Assembly (NCBI RefSeq): GCF_003018235.1
Contig: NZ_CP027437.1
Strand: one strand, 5' to 3'
DNA from: Escherichia coli
Lineage (GTDB): Bacteria > Pseudomonadota > Gammaproteobacteria > Enterobacterales > Enterobacteriaceae
Length of the DNA stretch: 64,000 nt
The notes beneath the pieces were generated by a model. The model was given only the letters and a program-made list of their open reading frames with translations. It ran no database searches and was not told the DNA's origin. Of this stretch, positions 13,987 through 35,519 are shown piece by piece. Numbering within the stretch: position 1 is the first letter of the stretch; each line of letters begins with the position of its first letter. Both the position numbers and the translations under genes were made by a program.

Positions 13987-14240
13987 AAATAAATTAGCCT
14001 GATGGCCTGAACTACTGGGCCATTAGGGTATTGGGTTATGCTATTTGTCATCCTTTTAATTGCGATAATGCAGGCTTAATTTACAGAATTAAACACTTTT
14101 TTATCTGCTGATTTTGTTTCAAATCACAATGTTATCTCAGAGATGACTCATAACTTAGGATTTCTATGAAAATATTGACGTAATTTTGCTTTTCTCTCGT
14201 TAGAATAGCGCGCACAAGGAACTGTGAAAAAGGAGTGGCA

Positions 14241-15131
14241 ATGATCAAGAAGACAACGGAAATTGATGCCATCTTGTTAAATCTCAATAAGGCTATCGAT
14301 GCCCACTACCAGTGGCTGGTAAGTATGTTTCGCAGCGTAGTCGCGAGAGATGCCAGTAAGCCAGAAATAACGGATAACCATTCTTATGGACTGTGCCAGT
14401 TTGGTCGGTGGATTGATCATCTGGGACCACTCGATAATGATGAATTACCTTATGTTCGGCTAATGGATTCTGCCCATCAACATATGCATAACTGTGGTCG
14501 GGAATTAATGCTGGCTATTGTTGAAAATCACTGGCAGGACGCGCATTTCGACGCCTTTCAGGAGGGGTTGCTTTCTTTTACTGCGGCATTAACCGATTAC
14601 AAAATTTATTTGCTGACGATCCGTAGCAATATGGATGTTTTGACGGGATTGCCGGGTCGTCGGGTTCTTGATGAATCCTTTGATCATCAGTTACGCAACG
14701 CTGAGCCTCTGAATCTTTATTTAATGTTGTTGGATATTGACCGATTTAAATTGGTTAATGATACCTACGGGCATTTAATCGGCGATGTAGTATTACGCAC
14801 CCTGGCAACTTACTTAGCCAGTTGGACGCGCGATTACGAAACGGTTTATCGCTACGGTGGCGAAGAATTTATCATTATTGTCAAAGCGGCTAATGATGAA
14901 GAAGCATGTCGTGCAGGTATCAGAATTTGCCAGTTAGTCGATAACCATGCCATCACACATTCTGAAGGGCATATCAACATTACCGTGACAGCAGGTGTGA
15001 GTCGCGCATTTCCTGAAGAGCCTCTGGATGTGGTCATTGGAAGAGCGGACCGGGCAATGTATGAGGGTAAGCAAACCGGAAGAAATCGCTGTATGTTTAT
15101 TGACGAACAAAACGTGATTAACCGAGTTTAA
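14241..15131 (+). CDS. dgcZ: Diguanylate cyclase DgcZ (zinc-sensing CZB domain plus GGDEF)
   Basis: 296 aa from MIKKTTEIDAILLNLNKAIDAHYQW...; GGEEF motif; AAGGAG RBS at 14229-14234. Confidence 0.95.
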   Translation: MIKKTTEIDAILLNLNKAIDAHYQWLVSMFRSVVARDASKPEITDNHSYGLCQFGRWIDHLGPLDNDELPYVRLMDSAHQHMHNCGRELMLAIVENHWQDAHFDAFQEGLLSFTAALTDYKIYLLTIRSNMDVLTGLPGRRVLDESFDHQLRNAEPLNLYLMLLDIDRFKLVNDTYGHLIGDVVLRTLATYLASWTRDYETVYRYGGEEFIIIVKAANDEEACRAGIRICQLVDNHAITHSEGHINITVTAGVSRAFPEEPLDVVIGRADRAMYEGKQTGRNRCMFIDEQNVINRV

Positions 15132-19106: not shown

Positions 19107-19229
19107 GAATCTAATATTATTAAACTATTACCTGAACTAACTTTTCACACATCATAAAATGGATATGGCATACATGCTTTATTGGGATGTATAAATATCC
19201 AGAACAACACGTATAAAAAAATGAGATTA

Positions 19230-20543
19230 ATGACCTCATTCGAACGTGGAATGGAACGTTTTCTTGTTCCAGTTGCTATCAAGTTAAACTCACAAAAACA
19301 TGTTGCAGCGGTGAGAGATGGATTCGTTTTTACGTTTCCAATTATCATGGCAAGCTCATTAATTATATTAATAAACTTTGCCATATTATCGCCAGACGGC
19401 TTTATTGCCGGACTGCTGCATCTGAACAGCGTTTTTCCCAACCTTGAAAAAGCACAAGCTATTTTTACTCCGGTAATGAATGGCTCTGTAAATATCATGT
19501 CAATTATGATTGCTTTCCTGGTCGCCAGAAATATGGCGATTAGCTATGAGCAAGATGATCTTTTATGCGGATTAACGGCAATAGGCGCATTTTTTATTGT
19601 TTATACGCCATATCAGATGATAGATGGACAAGCATTCCTGACGACCAAATATCTCGGCGCACAGGGGTTGTTTGTTGCTGTTATCGTTGCATTAATCACC
19701 AGTGAAATATTTTGTCGCTTAGCTCGAAACCCAAAAATCACCATAACGATGCCGGCATCTGTACCTCCTGCGGTAGCGCGTTCATTTAAAGTTTTATTGC
19801 CAATATTTTTTGTCATGGTGTTCTTTTCCGCACTTAATTATTGCCTGACACTGATATCCCCGGCAGGATTAAACGATCTCATTTACACATTAATCCAGAC
19901 GCCGCTCAAACATATGGGAACGAATATCTTTGCGGTAATTATCCTGGGGGCTGTGGGTAATTTCCTGTGGGTGCTGGGGATCCACGGACCTAATACCACC
20001 TCGGCAATTCGAGAAACTGTTTTTTCTGAGGCTAATCTGGAGAATCTCTCCTGGGCCGCTCAACACGGCACTACCTGGGGCGCGCCATATCCGATTACCT
20101 GGACTTCTATTAATGATGCATTCGCCAACTGCGGCGGTTCAGGCATGACGTTGGGATTATTGTTGGCTATTTTCATCGCTTCTAAGCGTGCGGAATACCG
20201 TGATCTGGCAAAAATGTCATTTATCCCCGGTATTTTCAATATCAATGAACCGATAATGTTCGGCCTTCCTATTGTACTTAACCCCATCATGATGGTGCCG
20301 TTTATTCTGGTTCCCATTGTTAACTGTGCCATTGGTTACTGCTTTGTTTCGATGGAAATTATTCCACCGGTTGCTTATGCCGTGCCCTGGACTACGCCCG
20401 GACCTTTAATTGCTTTCCTCGGAACCGGGGGAAACTGGCTGGCGTTACTGGTGGGTTTTTTATGTTTAGGTGTGGCGACAATGATCTATTTACCTTTTGT
20501 TATTGCAGCCAACAAGGTCAATAACATGACAACTAACGGATAA
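19230..20543 (+). CDS. PTS lactose/cellobiose-family EIIC permease
   Basis: Polytopic membrane protein; the N-terminus aligns to ChbC ([15 protein letters not shown]). Start is uncertain: ATGs at 19182, 19221, 19230 and 19251. Confidence 0.85.
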   Translation: MTSFERGMERFLVPVAIKLNSQKHVAAVRDGFVFTFPIIMASSLIILINFAILSPDGFIAGLLHLNSVFPNLEKAQAIFTPVMNGSVNIMSIMIAFLVARNMAISYEQDDLLCGLTAIGAFFIVYTPYQMIDGQAFLTTKYLGAQGLFVAVIVALITSEIFCRLARNPKITITMPASVPPAVARSFKVLLPIFFVMVFFSALNYCLTLISPAGLNDLIYTLIQTPLKHMGTNIFAVIILGAVGNFLWVLGIHGPNTTSAIRETVFSEANLENLSWAAQHGTTWGAPYPITWTSINDAFANCGGSGMTLGLLLAIFIASKRAEYRDLAKMSFIPGIFNINEPIMFGLPIVLNPIMMVPFILVPIVNCAIGYCFVSMEIIPPVAYAVPWTTPGPLIAFLGTGGNWLALLVGFLCLGVATMIYLPFVIAANKVNNMTTNG

Positions 20544-20934: not shown

Positions 20935-23985
<3,051 letters not shown>

Positions 23986-30998: not shown

Positions 30999-31925
30999 GT
31001 GGCAGTCGCCATGGATAATGCAATTTTAGAAAACATCTTGCGGCAAGTGCGGCCGCTCATTGGTCAGGGTAAAGTCGCGGATTATATTCCGGCGCTGGCT
31101 ACGGTAGACGGTTCCCGATTGGGCATTGCTATCTGTACCGTTGACGGACAGCTTTTTCAGGCCGGAGACGCGCAAGAACGTTTTTCCATTCAGTCTATTT
31201 CCAAAGTGCTGAGTCTCGTTGTCGCCATGCGTCATTACTCCGAAGAGGAAATCTGGCAACGCGTCGGCAAAGATCCGTCTGGATCACCGTTCAATTCTTT
31301 AGTGCAACTGGAAATGGAGCAGGGTATTCCGCGTAATCCGTTTATTAATGCCGGTGCGCTGGTGGTCTGCGATATGTTGCAAGGGCGATTAAGCGCTCCT
31401 CGGCAACGTATGCTGGAAGTCGTGCGCGGCTTAAGCGGTGTGTCTGATATTTCCTACGATACGGTGGTAGCGCGTTCCGAATTTGAACACTCCGCGCGAA
31501 ATGCGGCTATCGCCTGGCTGATGAAGTCGTTTGGCAATTTCCATCATGACGTGACAACCGTTCTGCAAAACTACTTTCATTACTGCGCTCTGAAAATGAG
31601 CTGTGTAGAGCTGGCCCGGACGTTTGTCTTTCTGGCTAATCAGGGGAAAGCTATTCATATTGATGAACCTGTGGTGACGCCAATGCAGGCGCGGCAAATT
31701 AACGCACTGATGGCGACCAGTGGTATGTACCAGAACGCGGGGGAGTTTGCCTGGCGGGTGGGACTACCGGCGAAATCTGGCGTTGGTGGCGGTATTGTGG
31801 CGATTGTTCCGCATGAAATGGCCATCGCAGTCTGGAGCCCGGAACTGGATGATGCCGGTAACTCGCTTGCGGGCATTGCTGTCCTTGAACAATTGACGAA
31901 ACAACTAGGGCGTTCGGTTTATTAA
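30999..31925 (+). CDS. glsB: Glutaminase 2 GlsB (YneH)
   Basis: 308 aa, serine-dependent glutaminase family; GTG start with an AGGAG RBS. Confidence 0.9.
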
Positions 31926-32284
31926 TGCAGTCTCTCGATCCACTCTTCGCGCGTTTATCCCGTTCAAAATTTCGCTCTCGGTTTCGTTTGGGCATGAAAG
32001 AGCGTCAGTATTGTCTGGAGAAAGGCGCGCCAGTCATCGAACAACATGCGGCGGATTTTGTCGCTAAACGTCTTGCTCCGGCATTACCGACTAATGACGG
32101 TAAGCAAACCCCCATGCGCGGGCATCCGGTGTTTATCGCTCAGCACGCCACTGCAACCTGTTGTCGCGGTTGTCTGGCTAAGTGGCATAACATTCCGCAG
32201 GGTGTTTCGTTAAGCGAGGAACAACAACGTTATATCGTGGCGGTAATCTATCACTGGTTGGTTATACAGATGAATCAGCCATGA
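31925..32284 (+). CDS. yneG: Uncharacterised protein YneG (DUF4186-like)
   Basis: 119 aa; start overlaps the glsB stop (TAATG). Confidence 0.8.
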   Translation: MQSLDPLFARLSRSKFRSRFRLGMKERQYCLEKGAPVIEQHAADFVAKRLAPALPTNDGKQTPMRGHPVFIAQHATATCCRGCLAKWHNIPQGVSLSEEQQRYIVAVIYHWLVIQMNQP

Positions 32285-32422
32285 TAATTGCGGAAAACGA
32301 TAAAATAGCATTCCCAGGATATCTTTATTTGCCGCCGCTGTCAGCGAACATGCTATCCTTTATAAGAATTTACTTATTACGTTGAGATAATTGCCACCCG
32401 CAATTGTATGGACAGATAATTA

Positions 32423-33841
32423 ATGCATGTACAGCCCATTTCAACTTTCCGTTTGTTCCAGGAAGGTCATCTGCTACGTAATAGCATCGCTATTTTTGCG
32501 CTAACCACGCTGTTCTATTTTATTGGTGCAGAGTTACGGCTGGTTCACGAACTTTCTCTTTTCTGGCCGCTGAATGGCGTAATGGCGGGGGTGTTTGCCC
32601 GCTATGTCTGGCTTAATCGACTGCATTACTATGCGATCAGTTATGTGGCAATGCTGGTTTATGATGCCATAACCACCGAATGGGGGCTGGTTTCACTGGC
32701 TATCAATTTCTCCAATATGATGTTTATTGTTACCGTCGCCTTACTGGTCGCGCGGGATAAGCGTCTGGGGAAAAATAAGTACGAGCCAGTAAGTGCCTTA
32801 CGGCTATTTAATTACTGTCTGATTGCCGCATTATTATGCGCTATTGTCGGGGCGATTGGTTCGGTCAGTATTGATAGTCTGGATTTCTGGCCTTTGCTTG
32901 CCGACTGGTTCAGTGAGCAATTCTCAACGGGCGTGTTGATAGTGCCTTGTATGCTGACGTTGGCAATTCCTGGAGTGCTGCCGCGCTTTAAAGCAGAACA
33001 GATGATGCCCGCTATCGCGCTTATTGTGTCGGTTATTGCCTCGGTAGTCATTGGCGGAGCGGGGAGTCTGGCGTTCCCGCTGCCTGCATTAATCTGGTGT
33101 GCAGTGCGCTATACGCCGCAGGTAACATGTCTGTTGACCTTTGTCACCGGTGCGGTGGAAATCGTACTGGTGGCAAATTCGGTGATTGATATCTCGGTCG
33201 GTTCGCCATTCTCCATTCCAGAAATGTTCTCCGCACGTCTCGGTATTGCCACGATGGCGATATGCCCAATTATGGTTTCTTTTAGCGTGGCAGCGATCAA
33301 TTCGCTAATGAAGCAAGTTGCGCTGCGAGCCGACTTTGATTTTCTGACTCAGGTTTACTCACGGTCCGGTCTTTATGAGGCGCTGAAAAGTCCATCGCTG
33401 AAACAGACACAACATCTGACTGTCATGCTGCTTGATATCGACTATTTCAAAAGTATTAACGATAACTATGGACATGAATGTGGCGATAAAGTGTTAAGCG
33501 TGTTTGCAAGGCATATTCAGAAGATTGTCGGTGATAAGGGGCTGGTGGCACGAATGGGCGGCGAAGAATTTGCTGTTGCAGTGCCATCGGTGAATCCTGT
33601 CGATGGTCTGCTAATGGCGGAAAAAATCCGTAAAGGCGTTGAACTGCAACCGTTCACCTGGCAACAAAAAACGCTTTATCTCACGGTAAGTATTGGCGTC
33701 GGTAGTGGTCGCGCATCGTACCGAACGCTGACCGATGACTTTAATAAATTGATGGTCGAAGCCGATACGTGTCTGTATCGCTCGAAGAAAGATGGGCGCA
33801 ACCGTACCAGCACTATGTGTTACGGTGAGGAAGTTGTCTGA
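32423..33841 (+). CDS. dgcF: Membrane-anchored diguanylate cyclase DgcF (YneF): N-terminal multi-TM sensor domain plus GGDEF
   Basis: 472 aa; hydrophobic N-terminal half; GGEEF motif. Confidence 0.85.
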   Translation: MHVQPISTFRLFQEGHLLRNSIAIFALTTLFYFIGAELRLVHELSLFWPLNGVMAGVFARYVWLNRLHYYAISYVAMLVYDAITTEWGLVSLAINFSNMMFIVTVALLVARDKRLGKNKYEPVSALRLFNYCLIAALLCAIVGAIGSVSIDSLDFWPLLADWFSEQFSTGVLIVPCMLTLAIPGVLPRFKAEQMMPAIALIVSVIASVVIGGAGSLAFPLPALIWCAVRYTPQVTCLLTFVTGAVEIVLVANSVIDISVGSPFSIPEMFSARLGIATMAICPIMVSFSVAAINSLMKQVALRADFDFLTQVYSRSGLYEALKSPSLKQTQHLTVMLLDIDYFKSINDNYGHECGDKVLSVFARHIQKIVGDKGLVARMGGEEFAVAVPSVNPVDGLLMAEKIRKGVELQPFTWQQKTLYLTVSIGVGSGRASYRTLTDDFNKLMVEADTCLYRSKKDGRNRTSTMCYGEEVV

Positions 33842-34067
33842 CATCTTTATTCATTCAGAGCGATTTAAATGCAATGTGTTCTACCACTTTATGATCCAAG
33901 AAAAGGCGTTTTTCCTCGATTAAACCATGATCCGCGCCACACTTTTCTCATAAAACTGCTCATTAATCATCAGGAGTTGATCAAAACAGGGGTTCGGCGT
34001 ATTAAAGTTTGCTAACCTGTCGTACCAATTCAAACAGGTTGTATGACTAATCAGAAGGGAACCCATT

Positions 34068-35519
34068 GTGAAAACACTAAATCGTCGCGATTTTCCCGGT
34101 GCACAGTATCCAGAACGTATCATTCAGTTTGGTGAAGGTAACTTCCTGCGCGCCTTTGTTGACTGGCAAATCGATCTCCTGAATGAGCACACCGATCTGA
34201 ATTCTGGCGTGGTCGTTGTTCGTCCGATTGAAACTTCATTCCCGCCGTCACTGAGCACGCAGGATGGTCTGTATACCACCATTATCCGTGGCCTGAATGA
34301 GAAGGGTGAAGCGGTCAGCGACGCGCGTCTGATTCGCTCGGTTAATCGTGAAATCAGCGTCTACAGTGAATACGATGAATTCCTGAAACTGGCGCATAAC
34401 CCGGAAATGCGCTTTGTTTTCTCTAACACCACCGAAGCGGGTATCAGCTACCATGCGGGCGATAAATTCGATGACGCGCCAGCGGTAAGTTATCCGGCAA
34501 AACTGACCCGTCTGCTGTTCGAACGTTTTAGCCATTTCAACGGTGCGCTGGATAAAGGTTGGATCATCATCCCGTGTGAGTTGATCGACTACAATGGCGA
34601 CGCGTTGCGTGAACTTGTGCTGCGCTATGCGCAAGAGTGGGCACTACCAGAAGCATTTATTCAATGGCTGGATCAGGCTAACAGCTTCTGTTCTACGCTG
34701 GTGGACCGTATCGTTACCGGCTATCCGCGTGATGAAGTGGCTAAACTGGAAGAAGAACTGGGTTATCACGATGGTTTCCTCGACACCGCTGAACACTTTT
34801 ACCTGTTTGTGATTCAGGGGCCGAAATCCTTAGCGACTGAGCTGTGCCTGGACAAATATCCACTCAACGTGCTGATTGTTGACGATATTAAACCGTACAA
34901 AGAACGCAAAGTGGCAATCCTCAACGGTGCGCACACCGCGCTGGTGCCGGTGGCGTTCCAGGCAGGGCTGGATACCGTAGGTGAAGCGATGAACGATGCT
35001 GAAATTTGCGCATTCGTTGAAAAAGCCATCTACGAAGAAATTATTCCGGTACTGGATTTGCCTCGTGATGAACTGGAATCTTTCGCCAGTGCAGTCACCG
35101 GACGTTTCCGTAACCCGTACATCAAACATCAGTTGCTATCTATCGCCCTCAACGGTATGACCAAGTTCCGCACCCGCATCCTGCCGCAACTGCTGGCAGG
35201 GCAGAAGGCAAACGGCACACTTCCGGCGCGCCTGACTTTCGCATTAGCGGCATTGATTGCGTTTTATCGCGGTGAGCGTAATGGAGAAACATATCCGGTA
35301 CAGGACGATGCACACTGGCTGGAACGTTATCAGCAACTCTGGAGCCAGCATCGTGACCGTGTTATCGGTACCCAGGAACTGGTAGCGATTGTGTTGGCAG
35401 AAAAAGACCACTGGGAGCAGGACCTGACGCAAGTGCCTGGTCTGGTCGAGCAGGTGGCTAATGACCTGGATGTGATTCTCGAAAAAGGAATGCGCGAAGC
35501 TGTACGTCCGTTGTGCTAA
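34068..35519 (+). CDS. uxaB: Altronate oxidoreductase (tagaturonate reductase) UxaB
   Basis: 483 aa, [30 protein letters not shown]...; GTG start with RBS. Confidence 0.95.

Follow-up and report, generated by a model that had tools for sequence, protein, structure and literature searches.

A full-length dgcF gene for a membrane diguanylate cyclase in Escherichia coli and its 5'-deleted counterpart in K-12

The dgcF (yneF) gene of Escherichia coli raises a question of length. In the window analysed here, a stretch of 64,000 nucleotides from contig NZ_CP027437.1, the gene is an open reading frame of 472 codons, exactly where the initial annotation had placed it. In the K-12 reference NC_000913, the corresponding gene b1522 has 948 bp and encodes 315 residues, in agreement with the shorter K-12 form to which the initial annotation referred. 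Two readings of this difference were on the table. Either the present strain keeps a full sensor that K-12 has lost, or the K-12 start codon is annotated internally. The distinction between intact and K-12-truncated dgcF has been known in all essentials since 2014 (PMC4287979; also PMC5635695). The present analysis adds the exact coordinates of the deletion, the frequency of its junction (22%), a probable affinity of the sensor domain with MASE1 and a predicted fold that appears to resemble S-components.

The locus contains the following features.

32423..33841, plus strand: dgcF (yneF) coding sequence, full-length allele, 472 codons and stop (ORF list; PGAP coding sequences in KE55 and EC31; full-length orthologs in other genera)
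31925..32284, plus strand: yneG (DUF4186), conserved upstream neighbour (annotation of the K-12, KE55 and EC31 loci)
32285..32422, plus strand: yneG-dgcF intergenic region, 138 bp, where the promoter and the signals for translation presumably lie; K-12 has lost the 65 bp at its 3' end (ORF coordinates)
34068..35519, plus strand: uxaB (tagaturonate reductase), conserved downstream neighbour (annotation)

The dgcF reading frame is real and not a chance ORF. It begins with an ATG. Because an in-frame TAA is located two codons upstream, the frame has no further 5' extension. The next in-frame methionine is residue 54, past the first membrane helix. PGAP calls an identical 1419-bp coding sequence in two complete genomes, KE55 and EC31. 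The gene order sad-glsB-yneG-dgcF-uxaB is the same in the annotations of K-12, KE55 and EC31. The conserved yneG-dgcF-uxaB locus and near-identity of the protein assign it to the DgcF/YneF orthologous group of E. coli.

Signals upstream of the gene are faint. The sole promoter-like consensus match (32391-32420, TTGCCA-18-GATAAT) stops 3 nt upstream of the ATG; such matches are no more numerous in the dgcF upstream region than in shuffled sequence. The Shine-Dalgarno sequence is weak. A terminator scan of the dgcF region found none, and an Rfam scan of positions 31900-34200 returned no meaningful element, its one match (E = 0.73) being to a Brucella sRNA. A mini-ORF of three codons (ATG GAC AGA TAA), at 32409-32420, immediately precedes the dgcF ATG in the same frame. 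It overlaps the promoter-like -10 match GATAAT (32415-32420), is within the DNA missing from K-12 and is probably meaningless.

Over positions 32100-34100, the window shows 100% identity to KE55, a strain isolated from human urine. Outside the dgcF region, identity is 98.4-99.4%, with indels, which rules out that the window is identical to KE55 throughout. The comparison also brought out features remote from dgcF. The autotransporter ORF at 46651-50202 (plus strand) encodes 1183 residues, and its KE55 counterpart, annotated as 'ECSE_1600 family autotransporter', has 1806. At window position ~50178, in this ORF, the window is without ~1.8 kb of KE55 sequence (38079-39896 of KE55 locus L009). 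A cluster at ~17.9-24.0 kb, between eamA and marB, contains ORFs 19182-20543, 20938-22611 and 22630-23985 (plus strand). In the KE55 annotation it comprises a GntR regulator, PTS IIB, IIC and IIA subunits, a carbohydrate porin and a 6-phospho-beta-glucosidase. This sugar-uptake island is not known to occur at that site in K-12. Finally, a second diguanylate cyclase gene, dgcZ (ydeH), is located 17 kb upstream of dgcF, at 14235-15131 (plus strand), according to the KE55 annotation.

Alignment of the window with the K-12 locus using blastn shows that K-12 lacks positions 32358-32855, that is 498 bp. Two features concern the K-12 allele.

32358..32855, plus strand: 498-bp block missing in K-12, made of 65 bp of upstream DNA, the ribosome-binding region, the ATG and the coding sequence up to the first base of codon 145, with codons 1-144 complete (blastn; junction inspection)
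32894..32896, plus strand: TTG codon (Leu158), the NC_000913 start of the 315-aa K-12 'DgcF' (b1522 translation aligned to the window protein)

The ends of the deletion show neither microhomology nor direct repeats, and the junction does not allow even a one-base shift. It falls inside codon 145 and, according to an AlphaFold2 (AF2) model, inside a membrane helix; in this model the deletion would remove roughly helices 1-4 and most of helix 5.

Could the K-12 DNA nevertheless be the same, with only the start codon placed too far downstream? The unusual internal TTG start in NC_000913, at residue 158, does resemble a mis-call. Against this, K-12 MG1655 aligns to a 2-kb dgcF query in two pieces that cover 75% of it, and the 498 bp are missing between them. 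The initial annotation had pointed out that K-12 upstream DNA encoding the same extension in frame would reduce the matter to annotation. The K-12 frame upstream of the junction instead runs into yneG-dgcF intergenic DNA that has stop codons and no ATG. In addition, PGAP marks dgcF of another MG1655 assembly as a pseudogene ('incomplete; missing N-terminus'), and the deletion was reported by Richter et al. (PMC4287979). A mere annotation difference thus has a negligible probability. The difference in length is a true deletion in K-12, and the present strain keeps the full sensor, as the first of the two earlier readings proposed. The second reading is right in that the TTG start is internal, but it holds only because of the deletion: the TTG start and its 315-aa product are an artefact that follows from the loss of the true start.

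These observations agree with published data. Richter et al. described K-12 yneF as 5'-truncated by a deletion and not expressed; the start codon was misannotated because of the deletion, which also accounts for the absence of expression in W3110 (PMC4287979). The same study found that full-size yneF is expressed very weakly and depends mainly on RpoS (PMC4287979). Because of the K-12 truncation, Sarenko et al. (2017) worked with DgcF of strain 55989, and the DgcF protein was undetectable in K-12 (PMC5635695). The 315-aa K-12 fragment is active in a biosensor assay when overexpressed from a plasmid, and the E224A mutation (E381 here) abolishes this activity (PMC11757272). These data show that the deletion destroys expression and the sensor but spares the catalytic domain.

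Which of the two forms is ancestral was examined with orthologs and family members. With residues 1-300 as the query, orthologs were recovered from Escherichia fergusonii (472 aa, 87% identity), Citrobacter (478 aa, 84%), and Enterobacter and Lelliottia (479-482 aa, ~73%), all of them with a GGDEF domain. An exhaustive search among 1.84 billion cluster representatives yielded 406 clusters (50% identity) at E <= 0.001, and most of the full-length ones have 460-490 residues. Alignment of 74 full-length members shows that the part missing in K-12 contains the invariant or near-invariant residues G35, R39, L44, W48, P49, N51, G56, R60, D81 and N98. Full-length outgroup orthologs and invariant residues in the lost part make the long form the ancestral state, from which the K-12 form is derived. 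The converse scenario, in which a short form was ancestral and the present strain gained its N-terminal extension by insertion, draws on nothing but the bare difference in length. The full-length orthologs, the prevalent size in the family and the invariant residues all argue against it, as does a K-12 junction placed in codon 145 and in a membrane helix. We consider it extremely improbable.

The distribution of the two alleles was then obtained from 5426 complete E. coli genomes. The 2-kb dgcF query matches 5415 of them at 96-100% nucleotide identity, 4191 at a coverage of at least 80%. The 498-bp block is present at a coverage of at least 80% in 4190 genomes (77%). The exact K-12 junction occurs in 1216 genomes (22%), 1212 of them at an identity of at least 99%, as detected with a 54-bp probe (27 bp on each side) that seeds only on the contiguous junction. 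A 100-bp junction probe did not tell the alleles apart, since the search joins its halves across the 498-bp block; it was replaced by the 54-bp probe. Of 40 K-12-junction genomes sampled at even spacing, at least half are listed with non-laboratory sources, among them human, chicken, swine, crow and donkey as well as river water, seawater, marine sediment and wastewater. With an identical junction in 1216 genomes, wild isolates included, the K-12 allele is therefore a common natural variant and not a laboratory peculiarity. A few genomes have other lesions, such as H100, which retains 19% of the 498-bp block.

Altogether, 32423-33841 is very probably the intact ancestral dgcF, encoding an inner-membrane diguanylate cyclase, from which the K-12 allele derives by a silencing 498-bp deletion. 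This single event would have taken away the DNA next to the promoter together with the start codon and codons 1-144, thereby silencing the gene in K-12-type genomes.

Chimeric proteins were also observed in public assemblies. In P0007, P0009 and P0124, DgcF breaks off at approximately residue 175, 303 or 339, and its N-terminus continues in frame into the C-terminal portion of HipA, a toxin kinase. In P0122, GlsB is fused to DgcF from residue ~85. The window counterparts of the genes involved are dgcF at 32423-33841, hipA at about 50731-52053 and glsB at 30999-31925. The chimeras therefore correspond to independent deletions of ~18-20 kb (dgcF to hipA) and ~0.9 kb (glsB to dgcF). Taken with the K-12 deletion, these sequences suggest that dgcF appears to have been hit repeatedly by rearrangements.

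The C-terminal part of the protein carries the catalytic features listed below.

33329..33805, plus strand: GGDEF catalytic domain, residues 303-461 (Pfam)
33557..33571, plus strand: active-site motif GGEEF (A-site), residues 379-383 (located in the translated sequence by motif search; in agreement with the motif table of PMC3484386)

The Pfam GGDEF domain (PF00990) matches residues 303-461 with E = 2.4e-40 and 138 bits against a gathering score of 23.8, well outside what chance would give. The gene had been correctly identified as DgcF in the initial annotation. Residues D338, D340, K343, N346, D347, H351, D355, R377, the GGEEF motif, K455 and R459 are present and near-invariant across the 74 full-length family members aligned, the catalytic residues falling in columns at least 90% conserved. 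DgcF thereby has an intact GG(D/E)EF A-site and the residues that bind GTP and Mg. A motif search in the translation showed that the RxxD allosteric I-site, expected five residues before the A-site, is absent; the sequence there reads KIVGDKGLVARMGGEEF, with GDKG at the expected place. The I-site is a feature of a subclass and is not required for membership of the GGDEF diguanylate cyclases. The same conclusion, A-site intact and I-site missing, was reached for yneF in PMC4287979 and agrees with the motif table of PMC3484386.

The GGDEF domain is preceded by a large membrane domain.

32423..33322, plus strand: N-terminal integral-membrane sensor domain, residues 1-300, ~10 predicted helices, probably MASE1-like (hydropathy; AF2 models; family conservation; MASE1 links)

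A hydropathy scan shows ~8 strong hydrophobic peaks within the first ~300 residues. The AF2 model of DgcF (mean pLDDT 91.4, pTM 0.85) contains ~10 membrane-length helices, at residues 17-37, 49-60, 67-84, 89-111, 122-151, 155-179, 191-210, 213-229, 232-251 and 265/267-304. A second AF2 model for the sensor domain has a pLDDT of 89. The last helix (~265-304) continues into the GGDEF domain. The hydrophobic, multi-helix character that the initial annotation attributed to the N-terminal half is thus borne out by hydropathy and by the models, but the domain extends over ~63% of the protein and not half of it. The positive-inside rule would place in the cytoplasm the stretch past residue 296 and three loops, R60-R66, R111-K119 and R188-K190. 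We infer from the model a topology of ten helices with both the N-terminus and the C-terminus in the cytoplasm. Near-invariant residues of the domain are G35, R39, L44, W48, P49, N51, G56, R60, D81, N98, W162, P175, P196, G212, G214, L223, W225, C226 and P282. D81 is invariant in a 38-sequence family alignment, and the window protein has an aspartate at this position. P0008, which represents the largest cluster of E. coli DgcF (9487 member sequences), has a tyrosine there. Judging from such sequences, some E. coli dgcF alleles may carry a substitution at this key sensor residue.

These features suggest how the protein most likely works. The membrane sensor of ~300 residues would be joined to the cytoplasmic GGDEF domain by one long continuous helix (~265-304), through which it would control the output of the cyclase. 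Within a DgcF dimer, the GGDEF domains would join two GTP molecules at the GGEEF site to form c-di-GMP. Lacking an RxxD I-site, DgcF should escape product feedback inhibition, so its output would depend on expression, described in the literature as weak and RpoS-dependent, and on the signal perceived by the membrane domain.

An intact sequence might also hide a gene that is silent or decaying in this strain too, weakly expressed, subject to neutral drift and of no physiological consequence. The very weak, RpoS-dependent expression of full-size yneF (PMC4287979) is consistent with such decay. The repeated independent rearrangements, with the K-12 deletion in 22% of the genomes and the DgcF-HipA and GlsB-DgcF chimeras, also suggest dispensability. 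On the other hand, the 498-bp block is retained in 77% of complete genomes, and several genera share the conserved protein, in which both sensor and catalytic residues are invariant. Deletion mutants in CFT073 (PMC3484386) and in Shigella (PMC11327459) moreover show phenotypes. In uropathogenic CFT073, deletion of yneF leads to less biofilm in glycerol medium and less adherence to bladder cells, and an exogenous cyclase complements both defects (PMC3484386). In Shigella flexneri, DgcF raises c-di-GMP in a GG-dependent manner, as measured by LC-MS/MS and with a riboswitch reporter, and affects acid resistance, invasion and plaque formation (PMC11327459). We therefore regard a silent gene as unlikely and retain a potentially active cyclase.

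K-12 must be used with caution as a reference, since its dgcF is a dead, 5'-deleted remnant; NC_000913 still carries it as a 315-aa 'putative diguanylate cyclase', and recent work still clones the fragment as 'DgcF' (PMC11757272). Compared with K-12, most E. coli, the present strain and many pathogens among them, possess an additional, potentially active membrane-sensor cyclase. The extra enzyme enlarges their ability to produce c-di-GMP, a signal that governs biofilm and adherence and, in Shigella, also acid resistance and invasion.

What the membrane domain is related to was approached with profiles and structure predictions. A Pfam scan of residues 1-300 at E <= 10 gave a single, spurious match, to SAYSvFN. 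MASE1 (PF05231) does not match E. coli DgcF at E <= 10, its gathering score of 29.8 bits not being reached, and it also leaves unmatched the nearest homologs of DgcF, at 39-71% identity. MASE4, the sensor of DgcT, DgcX and CdgI, matches neither DgcF at E <= 10 nor any of the 74 family members. The domain may have received a name, possibly 'MASE5', in a 2016 nomenclature paper; a literature search for this term returned only unrelated papers.

Across the family, the relationship to MASE1 becomes visible. MASE1 matches 56 of the 74 members at E <= 1, in collinear and nearly full-length alignments, with a best E value of 3.2e-11. Three of the 20 members scanned individually exceed the gathering score (P0209, 40.6 bits; P0243, 31.7; P0221, 31.6), and several others reach 12-27 bits. 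Comparison using hhalign of the DgcF-family domain profile with residues 4-231 of DgcE, a MASE1 protein, gave a probability of 89% (E = 2e-6), and all 11 unrelated E. coli membrane proteins used as decoys stayed below 1%. With the same profile, the MASE1 proteins PdeA, PdeF and UhpB were not detected as single sequences. These profile matches suggest that the DgcF sensor domain is probably a divergent branch of MASE1, although it fails the formal Pfam membership test. Richter et al. (2014, PMC4287979) described the domain as without counterpart in E. coli, a statement that this affinity probably modifies.

The predicted fold of the sensor domain in the AF2 model appears to resemble that of ECF-transporter S-components. 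A sequence search of the PDB with the domain profile revealed no relative, and no Pfam S-component or 5TMR-LYT match was found for DgcF or among the 74 family members. A search for an internal duplication, by hhalign of the N-terminal against the C-terminal half of the domain, was negative at three cut points. S-component-fold receptors of the 5TMR-LYT class were described in 2024, without MASE1-type domains among those listed (PMC11109136), and the transporter-receptor link recently proposed so far concerns 5TMR-LYT kinases and MreD. The idea that the DgcF membrane domain is a divergent MASE1 whose core has the six-helix S-component fold is tentative, and we hold it to be less probable than its converse. 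If true, it would extend the transporter-receptor link to MASE1-type sensors such as those of DgcE and UhpB. Such sensors would then bind a small ligand inside the membrane and not solely serve as platforms for protein docking. The MASE1-like and S-component-like character of the domain provides a starting hypothesis for the signal of DgcF.

Comparison with known systems places DgcF as follows. The ECF S-components RibU, ThiT, FolT, BioY, BtuM and CbiM have only 7-15% identity to the DgcF domain, and in this comparison by predicted structure the DgcF domain has about four helices more than the six-helix S-component fold. Unlike S-components, the DgcF domain is fused to GGDEF, and its gene has glsB, yneG and uxaB as neighbours, without ECF (EcfT/EcfA) genes. 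The MASE1 sensors of E. coli (DgcE, PdeA, PdeF and UhpB) share with DgcF a multi-helix N-terminal domain of ~300 residues placed directly before the signalling domains, but the DgcF sequence itself has no Pfam MASE1 match. K-12 dgcF (b1522, 315 aa) has identical flanking genes and only 4 differences from the window protein in the 328 residues downstream of the junction, but the 498 bp that span upstream DNA, the ATG and codons 1-144 are gone and it has no native expression. Common E. coli DgcF alleles are ~99% identical to the window protein, which differs from the cluster representatives by few substitutions (Q4, A110, C466) that touch no conserved residue. Full-size YneF/DgcF of EAEC O104:H4, EHEC O157:H7, 55989, UPEC CFT073 and Shigella flexneri is the same gene at the same locus with the same 472-aa architecture, a hydrophobic domain of ~300 residues followed by a GGDEF domain whose A-site is intact and whose I-site is absent.
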